Shown here: positions 2,498-52,620 of the stretch, one piece after another
Layout of the letters: each line of letters begins with the position of its first letter
How positions within the stretch are numbered: the stretch's first letter is position 1
DNA from: Patescibacteria group bacterium UBA1370
Lineage (GTDB): Bacteria > Patescibacteriota > Microgenomatia > UBA1400 > PJMF01
Reading direction: 5' to 3'
NCBI GenBank assembly: GCA_002306315.1
Contig: DBRK01000035.1
Span: 1 to 53,098, forward strand
Length of the DNA stretch: 53,098 bases
Translations under genes and position numbers: made by a program
The notes under the pieces: model-generated
Told to the model about the DNA's origin: nothing
What the model saw: the letters and a program-made list of their open reading frames with translations, nothing else
Databases searched by the model: none

Positions 2498-3646
2498 ATG
2501 AAGGTTGGACTCGATATAACTCCAATTATTTATAGTCGCGGGGTTTCCCGCTACACTTCCAACCTGGCTATCAGTTTATTGGATTACACGGCTTTGTCGT
2601 TAAGTCTCTACGGCTCCAGTCTGCGAGGTTTTGCTCCTCTAAAATCTGCTGCCAAAAAGATCTCCAAGATTGCTCCTGGCCGGACCTCAGTGCAACTGCA
2701 ACATTATCCCCCGAGCGCCCTGGACTTGCTTTGGCGCCTAGGTGTGAACCGGCTGAGTAATCAACTGCCGGGTATCAAGGTTTTTCATTCCTGGGACTGG
2801 CTGCAGCCACCTGATACCAATTTTGCCCTAGTGTCTACTATTCATGACTTAGCCATGCTTAAATTTCCGGAAACAGCCCATCCTAAAATCCTGGCGATGC
2901 ACCGCCGCTCTTGGGAGATACTGAAAAAACGCCAGGCACACGTTATTGCTGTCAGCCGTACCACTAAGGCTGATATTGTCAGTCTGCTTGGTTATTCTTC
3001 CTACCTAGTGCATGTAGTTCATGAGGCGCTGCCTACCGAAGTGAGAATGGTGGCAGAAAAACTCACGGAAGAGAAGTATGACCGGATTAAAAACAAGTTG
3101 AAGCTGGATAAACCTTTTGTATTATTTGTTGGCACCCGGGAGCCGCGCAAAAATCTACTCAGGCTGATTAAAGCCTGGGAGCCGCTAGCTAACGATTTTG
3201 ATTTGCTGATAGCGGGCGAAGCTGGCTGGGATAAAACCAGTGAAGCCGATACTGTAACCACCCAAGAAAAAGGCCTGCGCTTCTTGGGCAGAGTGTCCGA
3301 TGAGGAACTGGCAGTTTTATACTCAGAGGCTGCTGTGTTTGCTTACCCCTCCCTCTATGAAGGTTTTGGTTTGCCTATTTTGGAAGCTTTCAGCTACGGG
3401 ACACCGGTCGTCACCTCCAATAATTCCGGGATGCAGGAAGTAGCAGGCAATGCCGCCGAATTGGTCGATCCTGAATCGGAAGAGAGCATCCGAGCTGGAT
3501 TAGAAAAGGTATTAAGCGAAACCGCCGGCGAACAGCAAAAACGGCTGCAGCGGATGATCATCAGGCAGCAGATGTTTAGCTGGCAAACAGTCGCCAGACA
3601 AACGTCCACAGTATACAAGAAAGCCGCCGAGGATTTCGCTTCTTAA
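2498..3646 (+). CDS. glycosyltransferase family 4 (GT-B, retaining)
   Basis: C-terminal EX7E-type signature YPSLYEGFGLPILEAFSYGTPVVTS, and FVGTREPRKN before it. Confidence 0.8.
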   Translation: MKVGLDITPIIYSRGVSRYTSNLAISLLDYTALSLSLYGSSLRGFAPLKSAAKKISKIAPGRTSVQLQHYPPSALDLLWRLGVNRLSNQLPGIKVFHSWDWLQPPDTNFALVSTIHDLAMLKFPETAHPKILAMHRRSWEILKKRQAHVIAVSRTTKADIVSLLGYSSYLVHVVHEALPTEVRMVAEKLTEEKYDRIKNKLKLDKPFVLFVGTREPRKNLLRLIKAWEPLANDFDLLIAGEAGWDKTSEADTVTTQEKGLRFLGRVSDEELAVLYSEAAVFAYPSLYEGFGLPILEAFSYGTPVVTSNNSGMQEVAGNAAELVDPESEESIRAGLEKVLSETAGEQQKRLQRMIIRQQMFSWQTVARQTSTVYKKAAEDFAS

Positions 3647-38868: not shown

Positions 38869-40197
38869 ATGGCACTTGTAAAACCTACCAATACCACCTT
38901 CGCGAAAATTAAAGTTATTGGTGTCGGTGGCGGTGGTGGCAACGCCGTCAACTCGATGATTGCCTCCAACAAAATCAACGGCGTTGAATTTATTGCCGTT
39001 AACACCGATGCCCAAGCTCTGCTGACTTCCCGAGCCGAAACCAAACTGCAGATCGGCAGCAATTTCACCAAAGGCCTCGGTTCCGGAGCGGATCCTGAAG
39101 TTGGCCGTACTGCCGCCGAGGAATCCTACGAAAAACTCCGCGACCTGCTTTTTGACACTGACATGGTATTTTTGACTGCCGGCATGGGCGGCGGCACCGG
39201 CACCGGTGCCTCACCCATCATCGCCGAGATTGCCAAAGAAACCGGCGCCCTGACCGTGGCAGTGGTCACCAAACCATTTGCCTTTGAGGGCATCCGGCGG
39301 ATGCAGACAGCTGAGGAAGGCATTGCCTTGCTCAAAGACAGCGTCGACACCCTGATTGTCATCCCCAATCAACGCCTCATGGAAGTCGTAGACAAGAAAA
39401 TGCCTTTCCTAGACGCCTTTAAGCTGGCGGATAATGTCCTCGGCCAAGGTGTCCAAGGCATTTCCGACTTGATCACTGTGCCCGGTTTAATCAATGTTGA
39501 CTTTGCCGACGTCAAAACCATCATGACCGAGTCTGGCTCAGCCCTGATGGGCATCGGCGAAGCCAGCGGCGAAAACCGCGCCGCCACAGCTGCCCGGATG
39601 GCAGTTTCTTCACCCCTGCTTGAGGTTTCTATCGATGGTGCAAAAGGCATCCTCTACAATATCATTGGCGGTCCAGACATGACCATGAGCGAGGTGTCTG
39701 ACGCTTCGGCGATTATTTCTCAAGCTGCCGACCCGGATGCCAACATTATCTTTGGGGCTACCATCAACGAAGAAATGGGTTCCAACATCAAAATCAGTGT
39801 CATTGCCACCGGGTTCGATGACCGGCAAATGGGTTATGGCGCCTCCACCAGGCCATTGTTCGGTGCCTATTCCCGCGAGTCGCAACTGAAACTCCGCAAC
39901 CAACAACGCCAGGAGGAGCGCCGCGCTGAAGAACAGCCTGCAGGTTCGCCCCTGATTGATAGGGCGCCCGGCAGCTTCACCCAACCCCTAACCACCAGTC
40001 AAATTCAAAGCACCACCCCCACGCAACCGTTTGTAAAATCCCAAGCGTTTGGTGATGATGTCAGCAACACCACCCCGGCAGCAGATGACATCGACGATGA
40101 TGAGGCCAGCACATCCGACAATGGCCATTCCGACATCAACCCTTCAGAGTTCGAGGATGAGTTCGAGATTCCGGCCTTCATGAGGAAACGGCGCTAA
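38869..40197 (+). CDS. ftsZ: cell division GTPase FtsZ
   Basis: [11 protein letters not shown], the tubulin signature GGTGTGA, a long low-complexity linker and a C-terminal peptide [12 protein letters not shown]. Confidence 0.95.
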
Positions 40198-40721
40198 TCT
40201 TTTCCAAGAATATTTACCCGCAGTCGATACAACCGATCCAAAAACTCTCTAAAACCGTACAGATCGCTGTAAGTCATACCCAGGCTGTTTTGGATGTCGA
40301 CAACTCTCCGGCTGATGCTTTCCAAGGCTTGTATATCACTTTTAGTTAATAATCCTTCTAGATAATTCCGTTCAATTTGAAGTAATGAACGGCCATCAAT
40401 TAAAAACTGCTGCATGATTAGATGCTTTCTCATACCCAGATATTTGTTAATGATTTGCTCAGACAACTCGGCAATTCTGATTTTTCCGGCAATAGCCAGC
40501 AGATAGAGTTTTGCACCCAACTCCTGTGTTTCCAGAGAATGTCTGCCTCTAAGCACACCAATGTCGGTGACAAGCAAGAGTTTATGCATTCTCTCAACAA
40601 TTTCATAAGCTTTTTGCAAAGAAATTCCTTCCTTGCCGAGAGCTTCTGCGGTGAAGGCTTCGTCAAGACTTTTTGGTGCCGGCTCTTTTTTCCTGAAAAA
40701 TCTTTTAAATACTTCTGACAT
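40194..40721 (-). CDS. hypothetical all-helical 175-aa protein, convergent with ftsZ
   Basis: The only long ORF here. I recognise no motif. Its stop codon overlaps the ftsZ stop (CTAA at 40194-40197). Confidence 0.5.
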
Positions 40722-40781
40722 CTTAATAATGCTTCCAAGCCAAAGTCACAGATTGATTATAACCTGTTATTCTCACTCCTA

Positions 40782-40790
40782 TGCTATAAT
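40782..40790 (+). promoter_or_regulatory. extended -10 TGcTATAAT driving the ileS T-box leader
   Basis: Read directly. Confidence 0.45.
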
Positions 40791-40796
40791 TAAGAG

Positions 40797-41004
40797 GCAA
40801 CAGCGTTTGAGCCAGGCAATCACCCGGCGAGCTGGCCGCAGAAATGCCGCCTAGGCAAAGTAGATCGGTCCGGGTAAGCCCGTAATAGCTGGAACGAAGC
40901 GCGGCAACGCAAATAGACTCACAGCCGCGGAAAAGAGGTGGTACCGCCGAAATGAAGGCCCTCTTGTGGACAGCACCAACAGCTGTTTGCAAGAGGGCTT
41001 TTTT
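40797..41004 (+). promoter_or_regulatory. T-box riboswitch leader (tRNA-Ile sensing, transcription attenuation type)
   Basis: AGAGGUGGUACCGCCG at 40934-40949 matches the T-box consensus. The antiterminator has a 7-nt UGGUACC bulge. A mutually exclusive terminator follows. There is a long Stem I-like hairpin at 40803-40902 with Ile codons in its internal loop. ileS lies downstream. Confidence 0.8.
40956..41004 (+). terminator. intrinsic terminator of the T-box leader
   Basis: AGGCCCTCTTG (40956-40966) pairs with CAAGAGGGCTT (40990-41000), with an inner ACAGC/GCTGT helix, followed by a TTTTTT run (40999-41004). Confidence 0.8.
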
Positions 41005-41010
41005 GAAATT

Positions 41011-41084
41011 CCGTGAAAACAACACATTTCACGGTGCCCGCCTGGTATTAGACGCGTGAAAACAGCGTGAAAAATCGTGAAAAG
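41011..41084 (+). repeat. cluster of five CGTGAAAA-type motif copies (one inverted pair plus three tandem direct copies at 10-11 bp spacing)
   Basis: CCGTGAAA(41011-18)-N8-TTTCACGG(41027-34), then CGTGAAAAC at 41055, CGTGAAAAA at 41066 and CGTGAAAAG at 41076. Read directly. Confidence 0.6.
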
Positions 41085-41094
41085 CAAAGGAAAA

Positions 41095-43983
41095 ATGAGT
41101 AAAGAACCCCTGCCAACCACCTTGGATTTTCCAGAGATGGAAAAGCAAGTGCTGATCTACTGGAAAGACACCAAAGCCTTCGAGCGCCAAGTAGAAATGC
41201 GGCCGGAAAATAAGCCTTATGTGTTTTACGACGGGCCGCCTTTTGCGACCGGCATGCCGCATTATGGCCATCTTCTAGGTTCTACCGCCAAGGATGTCAT
41301 TCCCCGTTATTGGGCGATGAAAGGCTACCGGGTGGAACGTGTCTGGGGTTGGGATTGCCACGGCTTGCCGATAGAAAACATGATTGAGCAGCAACTGCAG
41401 ATCAAGGGCGGCAAAAAAGGCATCGAGGAGATGGGCATCGCCCGCTTTAACGCTGCCTGCCGCGCCGAAGTCCTGCGGCTTGACCAAGAATGGGAAACCA
41501 TTATCGACCGACTCGGCCGCTGGGTGGATTTCGCCAATAATTACAAAACCATGGACACCTCTTTTATGGAATCGGTGTGGTGGGGTTTTTCACAGCTGCA
41601 TGAGAATGGTCTGATCTATGAAGGCCGCAAAGTGGTTATGTACTGCCCGCGCTGTGCCACGCCGCTTTCTAACTTTGAGATAGCCATGGACAACTCCTAT
41701 GAGATGGTTGAAGATCACTCAATTTTTGTGAAATTCCCTGTTGATGGCAAGGCTGATGAGTATCTCTTGGCCTGGACAACTACTCCCTGGACTCTGCCTG
41801 GCAACGTTGGTCTGGCGGTTGATCCTCAAGCTGACTATGTCAAAGTCAGGGCCGGGGATGAGCATCTCTGGCTCGCCGAGGCTTTGCTGGAAAAGGTGAT
41901 GGGTGACCGAGAATATCAGGCCGTGGAAACGGTTAAGGGAGAAGCACTGGTTGGCACCCGTTACACGCCGCTTTACCCGTATATGGAGGAGCACCGGACC
42001 GAAAATGCCTGGATGGTAATGCCCGGGGATTTCGTCAGCATGGAAGACGGCACCGGGGTAGTGCACACCGCTGCTTTGTTTGGCGAGGACGACTATGACT
42101 TAGCCTTGGAATACAAGCTACCGCTGGTACCGACACTTGACGACGGCGGCAAATTTCTGCCCTTTGTTGAGGTGGCTGCCGGTTTGTTTTACAAAAAAGC
42201 AGAAGATACCATCAACACCGACCTGCAAGCACGTGGCTTGGTGTTCAAGCTGGAAAAAATTTATCACTCTTATCCTTTCTGCTACCGCTGTTCGACACCG
42301 CTTTATTACAACGCGGTTCCGGCTTGGTTTATCAATGTTCAAAAATTGAAGCCTGATTTGATTGCCCAAAACGAAAATATCAACTGGTATCCCGAACATC
42401 TCAAATACGGACGTTTTGGCAAAGGCTTGGAGTCGGCGCCGGACTGGAACATTTCCCGTTCCCGCTATTGGGGCACACCGATGCCGGTGTGGCGGCATGA
42501 TGAAAGCGGCCGCTACCGAGTAATTGGTTCACGGGACGAGCTGCGGCAGTGGGCGGTCAATCCGGGCGATGTTGGTAAACTAGAAGATATCCACCGCGAA
42601 TTTATCGACGATATCGAAGTCTGGGTGGATGATGAACGAACCATGAAAGGCCGCCGTATTCCGGAGGTTTTTGATTGCTGGGTGGAGTCCGGTTCGATGC
42701 CATTTGCCCAACATCACTATCCGTTTGAGAATAAGGAAAAATTTGAGCGGTCGTATCCGGCTCAGTTTGTCAGCGAGTACATCGCGCAGACGCGGGCGTG
42801 GTTTTACACTATGCACGTGATGTCAGTGGGAATTTTTGGCAGCAATGCGGTAGAAAATACCCTAACCACCGGCACAATCATGGCTGAGGACGGCAGCAAG
42901 ATGAGCAAGTCCAAGAAAAACTTTCCCGATCCAGTGGCCTTGATGGACAAATACGGCGTCGACAGCTTGCGGCTTTACATGATGAGTTCGCCGGTGATGA
43001 AATCCGAAAATATCAACTTTAACGAAGCCGAGGTCGGCGAAATCCGCAAGCGGGTATTCAACATTTGGTACAACATGTATGCCTTTTACCGGATGTATGC
43101 CGGCGAACGGGCGGTGCTTGTTGGTGAAGTGCCCCAGCCCCACGATGTGATGGACAGGTGGGTGATGAGCCGGGTGCAAAGCCTAATTCAATCAGTCACT
43201 GAAGCCATGGATGGTTATAACGTCGTCAAGGCTTCCCGAGCGCTGATGGCGGCCGTTGATGAGGTCTCTACCTGGTATTTGCGCCGCAGCCGAGACCGGT
43301 TGCGCGGCGTCAATAGCGGTGAAAGTCAGGGCGAAGCGCGCGGGGATGACGCAGCAGTGGCAGTTTTTGGTTATGTGCTGGTGACTTTAGCTCAATTGTT
43401 TGCGCCGTTTGCGCCATTCTTTACCGAGTGGTTGTTCCAACATCTGGTCGATCCGAGCAAGAGTGTGCATCACACCGACTGGCCGGTCGCCCATCCTGAG
43501 CTCATCGACACCGATCTGGAAACACAAATGGAAACTATCCGTCGGACAGTGGAACGCACTCATGCTGCCCGCAAAGAAGCGGGCATCAAGGTTCGTCAAC
43601 CGTTGGCTAGGGTGAGTGTGTTTACCAACGCGTCCAAGCCGGCCGAGGAACTGCTGGCGGTGCTGTTGGATGAAGTGAATGTCAAGGAGGCCGTTTGGCA
43701 GGATAAGCAGGTCTCTGCGGAAAGCGACAGCCAATCCGAAACCGACAGTGCTTTCCTGGACGTCCAACTCGACACCAACATCACTCCAGAATTGCAAGCA
43801 GAAGGCGAAGCTCGCGAACTCATCCGGGAAATTCAAAAACTCAGAAAAAAAGCCGGCCTGACAATCAATGACAGGGTGGTCGTGCAAGCTCCGGCTTGGC
43901 CACAGTCTTGGCAAACAGAAATCGAAAACCGGACGAATTCCAGCCTAGTGAGAGGCGAGCAGCTGAACCTGGAGAAGGCTTGA
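41095..43983 (+). CDS. ileS: isoleucine--tRNA ligase, type 2 (eukaryote-like) form
   Basis: YDGPPFATGMPHYGHLL (HIGH region) and SKMSKSKKN (KMSKS). The C-terminus has no Cys-rich zinc domain. ATG 41095 is preceded by AAGGA; GTG 41077 is an in-frame alternative. Confidence 0.9.
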   Translation: MSKEPLPTTLDFPEMEKQVLIYWKDTKAFERQVEMRPENKPYVFYDGPPFATGMPHYGHLLGSTAKDVIPRYWAMKGYRVERVWGWDCHGLPIENMIEQQLQIKGGKKGIEEMGIARFNAACRAEVLRLDQEWETIIDRLGRWVDFANNYKTMDTSFMESVWWGFSQLHENGLIYEGRKVVMYCPRCATPLSNFEIAMDNSYEMVEDHSIFVKFPVDGKADEYLLAWTTTPWTLPGNVGLAVDPQADYVKVRAGDEHLWLAEALLEKVMGDREYQAVETVKGEALVGTRYTPLYPYMEEHRTENAWMVMPGDFVSMEDGTGVVHTAALFGEDDYDLALEYKLPLVPTLDDGGKFLPFVEVAAGLFYKKAEDTINTDLQARGLVFKLEKIYHSYPFCYRCSTPLYYNAVPAWFINVQKLKPDLIAQNENINWYPEHLKYGRFGKGLESAPDWNISRSRYWGTPMPVWRHDESGRYRVIGSRDELRQWAVNPGDVGKLEDIHREFIDDIEVWVDDERTMKGRRIPEVFDCWVESGSMPFAQHHYPFENKEKFERSYPAQFVSEYIAQTRAWFYTMHVMSVGIFGSNAVENTLTTGTIMAEDGSKMSKSKKNFPDPVALMDKYGVDSLRLYMMSSPVMKSENINFNEAEVGEIRKRVFNIWYNMYAFYRMYAGERAVLVGEVPQPHDVMDRWVMSRVQSLIQSVTEAMDGYNVVKASRALMAAVDEVSTWYLRRSRDRLRGVNSGESQGEARGDDAAVAVFGYVLVTLAQLFAPFAPFFTEWLFQHLVDPSKSVHHTDWPVAHPELIDTDLETQMETIRRTVERTHAARKEAGIKVRQPLARVSVFTNASKPAEELLAVLLDEVNVKEAVWQDKQVSAESDSQSETDSAFLDVQLDTNITPELQAEGEARELIREIQKLRKKAGLTINDRVVVQAPAWPQSWQTEIENRTNSSLVRGEQLNLEKA

Positions 43984-45118: not shown

Positions 45119-45154
45119 AAAAAAGCAAAGAATCAGATTAAATTTCCTCTGTTG

Positions 45155-45163
45155 TGATATAAT
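45155..45163 (+). promoter_or_regulatory. extended -10 TGaTATAAT upstream of rplU
   Basis: Read directly. It would give a leader of about 60 nt containing a hairpin at 45177-45205 and an AAGGAG Shine-Dalgarno. Confidence 0.4.
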
Positions 45164-45231
45164 ACTACCTCTTTGTCCTGCAGCTGGGAGACCATGCTCC
45201 GCAGGGTAGCAAGAAGTAACAAAGGAGAAAT

Positions 45232-45543
45232 ATGTACGCGATTATTTCGCTCGCCGGCAAACAATACCGGGTAGAAAAGGGCACAAAATTAACTGTTGAC
45301 CGCCTCAACGCTGAAGAGGGGAAAAACATCACAGTCAACGAAGTGCTTTTTGCCAGTGATGGCAAAAAAGTCAGCGTCGGCACCCCAGTGCTCGATAAAG
45401 CCAGTGTTATCCTAAAGGTACTGGAACACGGCCAAGACAAAAAAATCAGAGTTGCTACTTACAAAGCCAAGTCTCGATACCGGAAAGTCAAAGGCCACCG
45501 GCAGCAAATCACTTCCGTTGAGGTAACCGATATCAAAGCTTAA
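45232..45543 (+). CDS. rplU: 50S ribosomal protein L21
   Basis: MYAIISLAGKQYRVEKG start and KVLEHGQDKKIRVATYKAKSRYRKVKGHRQ. Confidence 0.9.
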   Translation: MYAIISLAGKQYRVEKGTKLTVDRLNAEEGKNITVNEVLFASDGKKVSVGTPVLDKASVILKVLEHGQDKKIRVATYKAKSRYRKVKGHRQQITSVEVTDIKA

Positions 45544-45590: not shown

Positions 45591-46766
45591 ATGCAACAAT
45601 ATTTTTTCCAACTCGGCAACACGCCGGAATTATCGCTGGCAGAGCTGCAGGTTGTCTTACCAGGCACTATTTTTTCTCAAGTCCATCCTGACCTGGCGAG
45701 TGCCAAATTGGATGACAATGTTGACGTTGCCAGCCTTATGGAAAAATTAGGTGGTACCGTCAAGATCATCAAGGTTCTGGCTAACAAGGAAGGGACAGCC
45801 AAAGAAAATCTGGAAGCTGTCCTGGCTCAAGTGTTGGCTGATACACACCCCCAGGAGGGCAAAATCCATTTCGCCCTGGCCGAGTTAGGCCGGGATCACC
45901 TGCCAATGCTGGATCCGACTGATGTCAAGAGAGCTCTGGTCGAAATGGGTTATGGAGCAAGATTTGTAGAAGGCTCCAGGCATGGTTTGTCAGCTTCGGT
46001 ATTGTTGCATAGCCAACGTGTCAGGGAGCTTTATGTAATCCAGACCAGCGAAAAGATCTTCCTCGGCGAAACCGCTGCTGTACAAAACATTGATGAATGG
46101 AGCCGCCGCGATCGCTCCAAACCATACGCTGACCGCAAAAAAGGCATGCTGCCACCCAAAGTAGCCCGGATGATGGTGAATATGGGTTTGGGTATGCTCC
46201 AACGGGAGCAGCAGACACAAATTCCACTCTTGCTCGATCCATTTTGTGGTTCCGGCACGATTGCTATGGAAGCGCTGTTGAGCGACTGCGATGTCATCGC
46301 TGGCGACCTCGATTCAGATGCCGTTCATGGCACCAGACAGAACCTGGATTGGCTAAACACAGTTCAACCCTTTGACGGCACCTACGCCGTGGTCCATCAG
46401 GATGCTACCTTGATCAAGATACCCAAAGACCGCAAGGTTAACTTATTAGTAACTGAGCCTTTTTTGGGCAAACCAAGACCAAACCCCGCAAAGTTGCCTT
46501 TTATTTTCAAAGGTTTGGAAAAATTGTACTTGGGCGCCTTCAAACACTGGACCAAAATTCTCAACCCCGGAGCCGCCGTTGTCATTGTTTTTCCGGTTGT
46601 AGAAACCAACAATAATGGCAAGCAAATCCGTTATGACTTGAGGAAATTGATTGACAAGATCAGCCATTTGGGCTACACTACTCATTCTGAACCCATCCTG
46701 TACCACCGGCCGCAAGCCGTGGTGCAGCGGGAAATACACGCGTTTATTTTTCAACCTGGTAAATAA
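45591..46766 (+). CDS. putative SAM-dependent RNA methyltransferase (Trm11/RlmL/UPF0020-like catalytic domain; N-terminal domain unassigned)
   Basis: Motif [18 protein letters not shown] and an acidic loop AGDLDSDAV. The motif IV position reads VTEPFLGK instead of (D/N)PP(Y/F). Confidence 0.6.
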
Positions 46767-52544: not shown

Positions 52545-52620
52545 TGGAGCCGGGAAGGGGACTCGAACCCCTGACCTACGGTTTACGATACCGCCGCTCT
52601 ACCAACTGAGCTATCCCGGC
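52545..52620 (-). tRNA. tRNA-Thr (anticodon CGT), CCA encoded
   Basis: The reverse complement folds as a cloverleaf. Acceptor stem GCCGGGA/TCCCGGC, D stem GCTC/GAGC, anticodon stem GCGGT/ACCGT with loop AT-CGT-AA, T stem AGGGG/CCCCT with loop TTCGAGT, discriminator T, then CCA. Total 76 nt. Confidence 0.9.

Follow-up and report, generated by a model that had tools for sequence, protein, structure and literature searches.

T-boxes are a model system for RNA–RNA recognition in gene control, and the current account of them ties the architecture of the decoder to the regulatory output: kinetically controlled transcriptional switches, with fast capture of the tRNA, have a long Stem I that carries an elbow platform, and translational equilibrium switches have a short one, known only from Actinobacteria (PMC7583486, section 6.2; PMC7778990; PMC10482949). 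Reviews hold that transcriptional T-boxes generally need a long, platform-bearing Stem I because with it the tRNA is captured faster, before the polymerase arrives at the terminator, and that loss of the platform is tolerated in translational T-boxes, which face “no strict time limit” (PMC7583486, section 6.2). Among the examples of the short design that these sources name are the Class III ileS T-boxes of Mycobacterium tuberculosis, M. smegmatis and Nocardia farcinica (Sherwood 2015, as cited; PMC7583486; PMC10482949). Class III leaders have a short Stem I without the IDTM, with the Specifier in an apical loop of five or six nucleotides, and require Stem II, with N. farcinica ileS as the reference (PMC10482949); in the N. 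farcinica structure, a “5-purine string” of Stem II clamps the codon–anticodon helix (PMC7583486). Classes III and IV “mostly” regulate translation initiation (PMC10482949), and TBDB treats short-Stem-I leaders as “class II translational”, searched for only in Actinobacteria (PMC7778990).

We analyzed a leader at positions 40782-41004 of a 53,098-nt stretch of contig DBRK01000035.1 from Patescibacteria group bacterium UBA1370 (the window). This segment is very probably the promoter of ileS followed by a T-box leader in which a decoder of the rare short-Stem-I (“Class III”) type acts by transcription attenuation (Table 1). The initial annotation of the window, made from its letters, had proposed a T-box leader in front of ileS in a contig possibly of CPR/Patescibacteria origin, and this outline holds: the elements are present, conserved and covarying, and the codon matches the gene. 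The downstream gene, matched to TIGR00392, encodes a type 2 isoleucyl-tRNA synthetase (IleRS) by its Pfam domains, with a DUF5915 C-terminus and without the zf-FPG_IleRS domain, and an SD sequence (AAGGA) lies ~8 nt 5′ of its AUG. The gene order ftsZ-leader-ileS-rodA is conserved among CPR loci; a 175-aa ORF upstream of the leader in the window (40194-40721, minus strand) has no NCBIfam or Pfam match.

The extended -10 promoter is present as first read, with no recognizable -35, and would place the transcription start at ~40797-40799. Its position is conserved: TGnTAnnnT precedes Stem I by 10-25 nt in 20/23 CPR leaders. A two-hexamer promoter scan and a simple terminator scan of 40500-41300 flagged neither a promoter nor a terminator; the former failed because the -35 is absent, and the 17-bp terminator missed by the latter was nevertheless found by RNAfold.

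Table 1. Features of the ileS leader and its gene in window coordinates.
Feature	Position	Strand	Detail or basis
Extended -10 promoter, TGCTATAAT	40782-40790	+	Read in sequence
Ultrashort Stem I	40802-40833	+	Covariation and R1 alignment
Stem I C-stem, AGC/GCU	40802-04/40831-33	+	
Stem I K-turn-like bulge, GUUU	40805-08	+	Tandem G.A, 40809-10 vs 40829-30
Stem I helix, GCCAGG/CCCGGC	40811-16/40823-28	+	6 positions, one A.C mismatch
Stem I apical hexaloop, CAAUCA	40817-22	+	
Specifier AUC (Ile; pairs with anticodon GAU), then conserved purine A	40819-40822	+	Conservation, gene match
Stem II	40834-40870	+	Lower helix 40834-38/40866-70
Stem II putative S-turn strands, CAGAAAU and AAAGUAGAU	40839-45 and 40857-65	+	Keep GAA...AGUAGA purines
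Stem II short upper helix	40846-48/40854-56	+	Loop GCCUA
Stem IIA/B pseudoknot	40871-40892	+	IIA 40871-73/40880-82 (CGG/CCG)
IIB, loop UAAGC with GCUGG	40875-79/40888-92	+	3′ tail includes AUA-G, 40885-88
Stem III, 6-bp helix, 18-nt loop	40900-05/40924-29	+	RNAfold, -10.7 kcal/mol
T-box core, AGAGGUGGUACCGCCG	40934-40949	+	
Antiterminator/discriminator	40934-40964	+	Helix A1 AGAGG/CCUCU, 40934-38/40960-64
Antiterminator helix A2, GCC/GGC	40946-48/40957-59	+	Loop 40949-56
T-box bulge UGGUACC, 7 nt	40939-45	+	UGGU complementary to tRNA 3′ ACCA
Intrinsic terminator, 17-bp hairpin, 7-nt loop	40958-74/40982-98	+	RNAfold, -29.9 kcal/mol
U6 tract	40999-41004	+	Directly 3′ of terminator hairpin
ileS, isoleucyl-tRNA synthetase, 962 aa	41095-43983	+	TIGR00392, 838 bits

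A search of GTDB representative genomes with IleRS returned 80 loci, ~60 of them from CPR/Patescibacteria metagenome-assembled genomes (MAGs; 46-69% identity) and ~20 from Actinomycetota (36-40% identity). The top relatives whose records can be placed by name include Patescibacteria group, Gottesman-, Woese- and Uhrbacteria, as the proposed CPR setting leads one to expect; many other MAGs carry implausible NCBI names. Most of the 80 loci have the core GGUGGUACC upstream of ileS, and ~20 related CPR loci have no leader at all. The anchored leaders have a common layout, in which a short hairpin with the loop N-N-A-U-C-A is followed by a helix bracketed by GAAGAA...AGUAGA, then CGGG-N4-CCCG and ACAGC, a variable hairpin and the T-box core. 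We aligned 20 decoding modules with MAFFT, not fitted to any structure (alignment A1), and built from them a covariance model, R1, that covers CPR and actinobacterial leaders together; two further alignments, fitted to the model, hold 56 leaders (A2) and the 25 CPR leaders only (A4). R1 scores the window at 90.4 bits (E ~1e-23) and matched 56 of 81 sequences, once per locus, on the strand of ileS and just upstream of it, with no match elsewhere in 689 kb.

The 3′ half of the leader carries the switch. The T-box core and the antiterminator, with helix A1, the UGGUACC bulge and helix A2, are as the initial annotation described them, and helix A1 covaries among leaders (AGAGG/CCUCU, UAAGG/CCUUA, AAAGG/CCUUU, CGAGG/CCUCG). 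The bulge begins with UGGC in L007 and L015 and with UGGA in L024 and L031, which would suit tRNAs with G73 and U73. In the nascent RNA as far as 40981, before the 3′ arm of the terminator has been made, the antiterminator (-9.0 kcal/mol) is the optimal fold. The competing hairpin and its six U residues were likewise recognized earlier, but the stem is longer than the proposed 40956-40966/40990-41000. The 3′ strands of A2 and A1 both form part of its 5′ arm, and terminator and antiterminator are therefore mutually exclusive. A further match to the T-box core, GGTGGTACCGT at 45750-60, is part of an ORF (45591-46766), where it codes for G-G-T-V; it shows no T-box signal, and we regard it as a coincidence.

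We took a census of expression platforms by combining Watson-Crick-weighted detection of helix A1 with a detector of hairpins at U-tracts. A terminator overlapping the 3′ strand of A1 was found in 37/38 CPR leaders versus 0/18 actinobacterial leaders, all 18 of which have the SD-sequestering arrangement described for that phylum (PMC1262725). The CPR terminators range from -1 to -36 kcal/mol, and all but one are at least as strong as -10, the exception being marginal (L031, -1.2). As a control, the detector recovered 29/29 real sites with an unambiguous A1 strand and fired at 45/1160 random positions (3.9%).

Control of translation, with a hairpin that sequesters the SD, whether or not it also terminates transcription, is an improbable reading of the window leader. 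SD sequestration throughout the actinobacterial relatives speaks for it, and so do two CPR leaders, L020 and L022, in which the 3′ arm of the hairpin, UAGAGG, doubles as an SD just 5′ of the AUG; L020 has no detected terminator, and in L022 the hairpin, read only from the anchored leader, has U7 and then the AUG on its 3′ side. In the window, however, the hairpin is complete at 40998, and the SD (~41086) and AUG (~41095) come ~80-90 nt past the U-tract, out of its reach; control there must therefore be transcriptional. Moreover, U6 directly after a GC-rich stem of 17 bp is the classic form of an intrinsic terminator, and a U-tract precedes ileS by 30-390 nt in 37/38 CPR leaders.

The 5′ half of the leader is the decoder, and here covariation supports an ultrashort Stem I. 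In the 56 leaders, as in the 25 from CPR alone, the Stem I helix shows compensatory changes at 6/6 pairs, with 91% of cells paired. At its base, the C-stem, tandem G.A and a 4-nt bulge (usually 3 nt) suggest a K-turn, with A.A in place of G.A in some relatives. The lower helix of Stem II shows compensatory changes at 5/5 pairs and is 97-98% paired across the same leaders (56; 25 CPR). Leaders of both CPR and Actinomycetota keep the AGAA(C/A) and AGUAGA motifs, and G841-A842-A843 and A859-G860-U861-A862-G863-A864 of the window match them at the level of sequence; by analogy with the structures from N. farcinica and M. tuberculosis (PMC7583486), these strands would adopt an S-turn geometry. IIA is invariant across leaders, and IIB has two near-invariant G-C pairs and a third that covaries (AU:15, GC:13, UA:3, CG:2). 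Only 3 Watson-Crick IIB pairs are present in the window (40877-79/40888-90), and the actinobacterial IIB variants GGAC/GUCC and CCAGC/GCUGG are compensatory. The predicted Stem III, flanked by the purine-rich linkers AACGAAG and GAAAA, varies in length and is missing from the closest relatives (L001 and L040).

Taken together, short Stem I, Stem II, IIA and IIB are 85.6% paired in the 56-leader alignment, with a covariation score of 0.444 against 0.132 for shuffles (0/500), and 94.8% paired in the CPR-only alignment (0.652 against 0.191; 0/500). Alignments fitted to a covariance model are biased towards its structure; this bias is lessened because the unfitted 20-module alignment gives the same result (80.9% paired, 0.399 against 0.141; 0/500). 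Both sides have changed at 18/22 pairs of this model in the 56 leaders, and controls with slid partners were only 20-49% paired.

These data also weigh on a further alternative, that the leader is a relic acquired with the type-2 ileS, its terminator constitutive or leaky and its tRNA sensing lost. The presence of type-2 IleRS in both CPR and Actinomycetota is compatible with a joint transfer, and the related CPR loci that have no leader also speak for this alternative; within CPR, however, Stem I and Stem II carry dense compensatory changes, which shows that the structure is still under selection, and the specifier, the S-turn purines, the IIA/B core and the UGGNACC bulge have all been kept. 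We consider a relic very unlikely, less probable even than translational control.

The initial annotation drew instead an aberrant Stem I of ~100 nt (40803-40902), with AUA-G in an internal loop as the specifier for a tRNA-Ile reading AUA. In this single sequence such pairs do exist, and they come close to the minimum-free-energy fold, but covariation already refutes this Stem I: its pairing across relatives is at the level of chance (49.1% of cells against 47.3% in shuffles, with a score of 0.112 against 0.096, in the 56-leader alignment, and 52.7% against 49.8% in the unfitted one; covariation overall 0.11-0.13 against 0.10-0.11), its CCAG/CUGG, CCCGG/CCGGG and GGCCGCA-GAAA-UGCCGCC helices are not conserved across leaders, the partner region at 40899-40902 is missing from the two closest relatives, and its freely varying 5′ strands are matched on the 3′ side to the pseudoknot tail and the invariant IIA strand. 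Helices of this kind cannot covary, since they join a strand that varies, the 3′ side of the true Stem I, to one of IIA that does not. Thermodynamics cannot choose between the two models, because single-sequence folding of the upstream region is no better than that of shuffled sequence (z = +0.37). The annotation had also failed to find an AG-bulge/distal-loop platform, and the leaders indeed have no conserved distal element. It called this Stem I non-canonical, but the design is the known short-Stem-I “Class III” one of actinobacterial ileS T-boxes (PMC10482949, PMC7583486), and the elbow-binding platform is missing because the decoding module is Class III.

Both candidate specifiers noted at the outset, AUC-A at 40819-22 and AUA-G at 40885-88, are present in the sequence, and the comparison separates them. 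AUC is invariant in the unfitted alignment and in every leader whose Stem I loop aligned; among these, 20/24 CPR and 15/18 actinobacterial leaders have AUCA, and the remainder AUCG, AUCU or AUC-. The AUC codon (Ile) agrees with the IleRS gene downstream. The AUA triplet favored at first belongs to the pseudoknot tail, where 33/56 leaders have ACA and 10 have AUA; covariation places AUC in the specifier position, which overturns the AUA reading on the terms that the annotation itself had set. Scans for a tRNA-Ile gene, which could confirm anticodon GAU and discriminator A73, found none in the window or in 60 CPR loci.

A search with Rfam model RF00230, which had been proposed as a check, fell short of the gathering score: no match was returned at that threshold from the whole window, and a 421-nt scan of the intergenic region gave 27.8 bits (E = 2e-4) against a gathering score of 93. 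The alignment is nonetheless full-length: the K-turn of the model, Stem II, IIA/B, Stem III and the T-box core are all represented, and 8 nt stand for 76 model positions of Stem I, which is thereby reduced to a tiny hairpin. At the gathering threshold, Rfam found no T-box in 16 related loci either. Because three actinobacterial short-Stem-I ileS leaders, of the known Class III kind, are also below the RF00230 threshold, the sub-threshold score of the window marks a limit in the scope of the model, not in the RNA. Standard Rfam annotation is blind to the CPR leaders, and RNA-based regulation of aminoacyl-tRNA synthetases is therefore under-reported in CPR genomes.

On the attenuation reading, AUC in the Stem I loop would decode uncharged tRNA-Ile(GAU), and the S-turn purines of Stem II would clamp the codon-anticodon duplex. 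The K-turn and the IIA/B pseudoknot would orient Stem I and Stem II towards each other, the pseudoknot setting the geometry, in a decoder that works without a platform for the tRNA elbow; these three-dimensional roles are modeled on the solved actinobacterial complexes. The free ACCA end of the uncharged tRNA would then pair with UGGU and stack on the weak antiterminator (-9 kcal/mol), stabilizing it, so that the terminator could not form and transcription would read through into ileS. With charged tRNA, or with no help from a tRNA, the 17-bp terminator (-30 kcal/mol) would capture the 3′ strand of the antiterminator, and RNA polymerase would halt at U6, at ~41000, ~90 nt short of the ileS start codon.

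We also scanned metagenomes for the IIA/B core, which gave another 80 loci, chosen independently of IleRS. R1 matches 36/80 of these, further ileS leaders among them, and the same short-Stem-I design with a hairpin and U-tract precedes genes other than ileS. The downstream genes were identified from NCBIfam, with few members per amino-acid class. Two leaders with GUC-A in the loop and a UGGU bulge (L098, L128) stand before valS. Three with a UGGC bulge stand before aspS: L148 has the loop CCGACA (GAC-A), L134 has GAC-A in a degenerate Stem I, and L091 has GAC-C and a Stem I that could not be resolved. The last, L153, has the loop CACGACA and a UGGU bulge and precedes an archaeal-type PEP carboxylase gene. 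G73 is the usual discriminator of tRNA-Asp, and the UGGC bulge of the Asp leaders would pair with it. Such agreement of codon, gene and bulge is hard to obtain by chance and favors functional T-boxes. BLAST comparison of the Val and Asp contigs with the window and the labelled loci was uninformative about their origin.

The leader in the window is thus a member of a conserved family in another, very large bacterial radiation. We hold it to be evenly balanced whether Class III T-boxes, which lack the platform, routinely serve CPR bacteria as one-shot transcription attenuators, at ileS and, provided that the metagenome contigs have a similar origin, at valS, aspS and the archaeal-type PEP carboxylase gene as well. 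If they do, the family would be a natural and widespread counter-example to the view that contact between Stem I and the elbow is needed to capture the tRNA before the terminator is made. Either the anticodon clamp of Stem I and Stem II would be kinetically sufficient, or CPR transcription, through pausing or slow elongation, would buy time. It would also extend the short-Stem-I design for the first time beyond isoleucine and beyond Actinobacteria. Since the CPR family joins a short-Stem-I decoder to a terminator, it supplies natural sequences for a direct test of the elbow-contact requirement. Furthermore, the type-2 IleRS and the leader design common to CPR and Actinomycetota raise the question of a joint history.

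Among described systems, the Class II glyQS leader of Bacillus subtilis is likewise a transcriptional T-box of reduced architecture, but the reduction is of another kind: glyQS has lost Stem II but retains the long Stem I with its IDTM, whereas the window leader has Stem II with IIA/B but no long Stem I. With Class I leaders (e.g., B. subtilis tyrS; RF00230), it has in common attenuation by competing antiterminator and terminator helices, the T-box bulge, the S-turn motif of Stem II, the IIA/B pseudoknot, Stem III and a specifier that matches the gene. It differs from them in a Stem I of ~32 nt instead of ~100 nt, in the absence of the AG bulge/distal loop (IDTM) and hence of a tRNA-elbow contact, and in a specifier placed in the apical loop rather than in an internal loop.

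The nearest relatives are the actinobacterial Class III ileS leaders. These precede the same gene, for a type-2 IleRS, and share with the window AUC plus A in a hexanucleotide apical loop, a short Stem I without the IDTM (the tRNA-elbow platform), the GAA...AGUAGA S-turn purines, the CGGG-N4-CCCG of IIA with the IIB pseudoknot, and the UGGUACC bulge. In detail, where they have a K-turn at the base of Stem I with a bulge of 3 nt, the window leader has a K-turn-like base with a bulge of 4 nt; it further has a Stem I helix of 6 positions rather than 4-5 bp, and 2-3 Watson-Crick pairs in IIB rather than 5; Stem III is short or absent here, and helix A2 is free of long insertions. The phylum is also different, Patescibacteria/CPR, and so is the output, an intrinsic terminator in CPR in place of the SD sequestrator of Actinomycetota. 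The window leader does not have the translational platform of Class III, a trait that is typical of the class, not strictly defining (PMC10482949). Our literature search found no paper joining T-boxes with Patescibacteria, CPR or Saccharibacteria, and isolated transcriptional examples with a short Stem I may already be on record. What is noteworthy, and was not seen in the initial annotation, is the systematic coupling in CPR of a known short-Stem-I decoder to an intrinsic terminator.

Short-Stem-I leaders followed by terminators were also found with specifiers other than Ile, on eight metagenome contigs (L098, L128, L148, L134, L091, L141, L153 and L126). Among these metagenome leaders, a GUC specifier lies upstream of valS, a GAC specifier upstream of aspS and of a gene for an archaeal-type PEP carboxylase, and a leader with a UGGA bulge precedes a cysteine synthase gene; the bulge of the Asp leaders is UGGC. 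To our knowledge, the short-Stem-I design has been described only for ileS. Within the ileS leaders of CPR, the fourth bulge position deviates in four related loci, reading UGGC in L007 and L015 and UGGA in L024 and L031. Because this base pairs with the discriminator of the tRNA, the variant bulges predict that those genomes carry a tRNA-Ile with G73 or U73, or that a mismatch is tolerated.

The output of the switch may also vary within CPR. At two related CPR ileS loci, L020 and L022, the 3′ arm of the hairpin (UAGAGG) constitutes a Shine-Dalgarno sequence a few nucleotides upstream of the AUG, and in L022 this arm is additionally followed by U7. Read from the sequence, the arrangement suggests a translational platform, or a dual terminator and sequestrator platform, inside CPR.

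Two further features flank the ileS leader of the window (see table). The interval from ftsZ to the promoter of ileS is taken up by a 175-aa ORF with a 4-nt overlap at the ftsZ stop codon; in the 80 related loci, the leader usually follows ftsZ directly. It has no match in NCBIfam or Pfam and no homologue in any of these 80 loci, and is either a lineage-specific insertion or no gene at all. Downstream, in the spacer from the terminator to the start codon of ileS, CGTGAAAA occurs four times in direct and once in inverted orientation (TTTCACG); the inverted copy forms an 8-bp inverted repeat with positions 41011-41018. The motif occurs eight times in the entire window against 2.9 expected. No such array was seen in the closest relatives, which have far shorter ileS spacers. 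It might serve for protein binding or form an additional layer of regulation.

Further along the window, another extended -10 element, TGTGATATAAT, is followed by a leader of ~70 nt, which matched none of the Rfam families, and by a 103-aa ORF that, judged by its N-terminus, may encode ribosomal protein L21. A near-perfect T-box core, GGTGGTACCGT, lies within a 391-aa ORF, where it encodes G-G-T-V; it was rejected as a second T-box, as it carries no T-box signal and is a look-alike by chance. The sole tRNA gene in the window is tRNA-Thr(CGU).

Locations of features in the window and of hairpins in related loci
Feature	Sequence	Location	Strand	Context
175-aa ORF	window	40194-40721	-	ftsZ-to-ileS-promoter gap
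CGTGAAAA array, 4 direct and 1 inverted	window	41012-41083		spacer from terminator to ileS start codon
Direct CGTGAAAA copies	window	41012, 41055, 41066, 41076		same spacer
Inverted CGTGAAAA copy	window	41027-41033		same spacer
Extended -10 and leader	window	45150-45231		upstream of 103-aa ORF
TGTGATATAAT	window	about 45153-45163		extended -10
103-aa ORF	window	45232-45543		
391-aa ORF	window	45591-46766		
GGTGGTACCGT	window	45750-45760		within 391-aa ORF
tRNA-Thr(CGU)	window	52545-52620	-	
SD-containing hairpin	L020	about 2939-2970		
SD-containing hairpin	L022	about 2939-2972		

Among L001-L054, many MAG contigs whose ftsZ-ileS-rodA locus is of the CPR type bear other titles in public records (‘uncultured Pseudomonadales’, ‘Gammaproteobacteria’, ‘Vitreimonas’, ‘Limisphaerales’, ‘Methylococcaceae’), and one set of such contigs carries the name HK-STAS-PATE. 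The public organism labels on these loci look unreliable.

About 12 CPR ileS leaders (L002-L004, L015-L018, L038, L039, L043, L050 and L066), as well as the loci L124, L108 and L147, carry an extra hairpin between the 3′ G·A of the K-turn and the C-stem (in L015, GUCCUGC...GCGGGAC), by which the predicted junction of Stem I and Stem II becomes a three-way junction; where this hairpin is inserted, our covariance model passes over Stem I. Reduced variants also occur: L128 and L134 have a plain hairpin as Stem II, with no S-turn motifs. In the related ileS locus L013, an ordinary hairpin stands in place of the IIA/B pseudoknot, which resembles the published result in which a hairpin could partly replace the pseudoknot.
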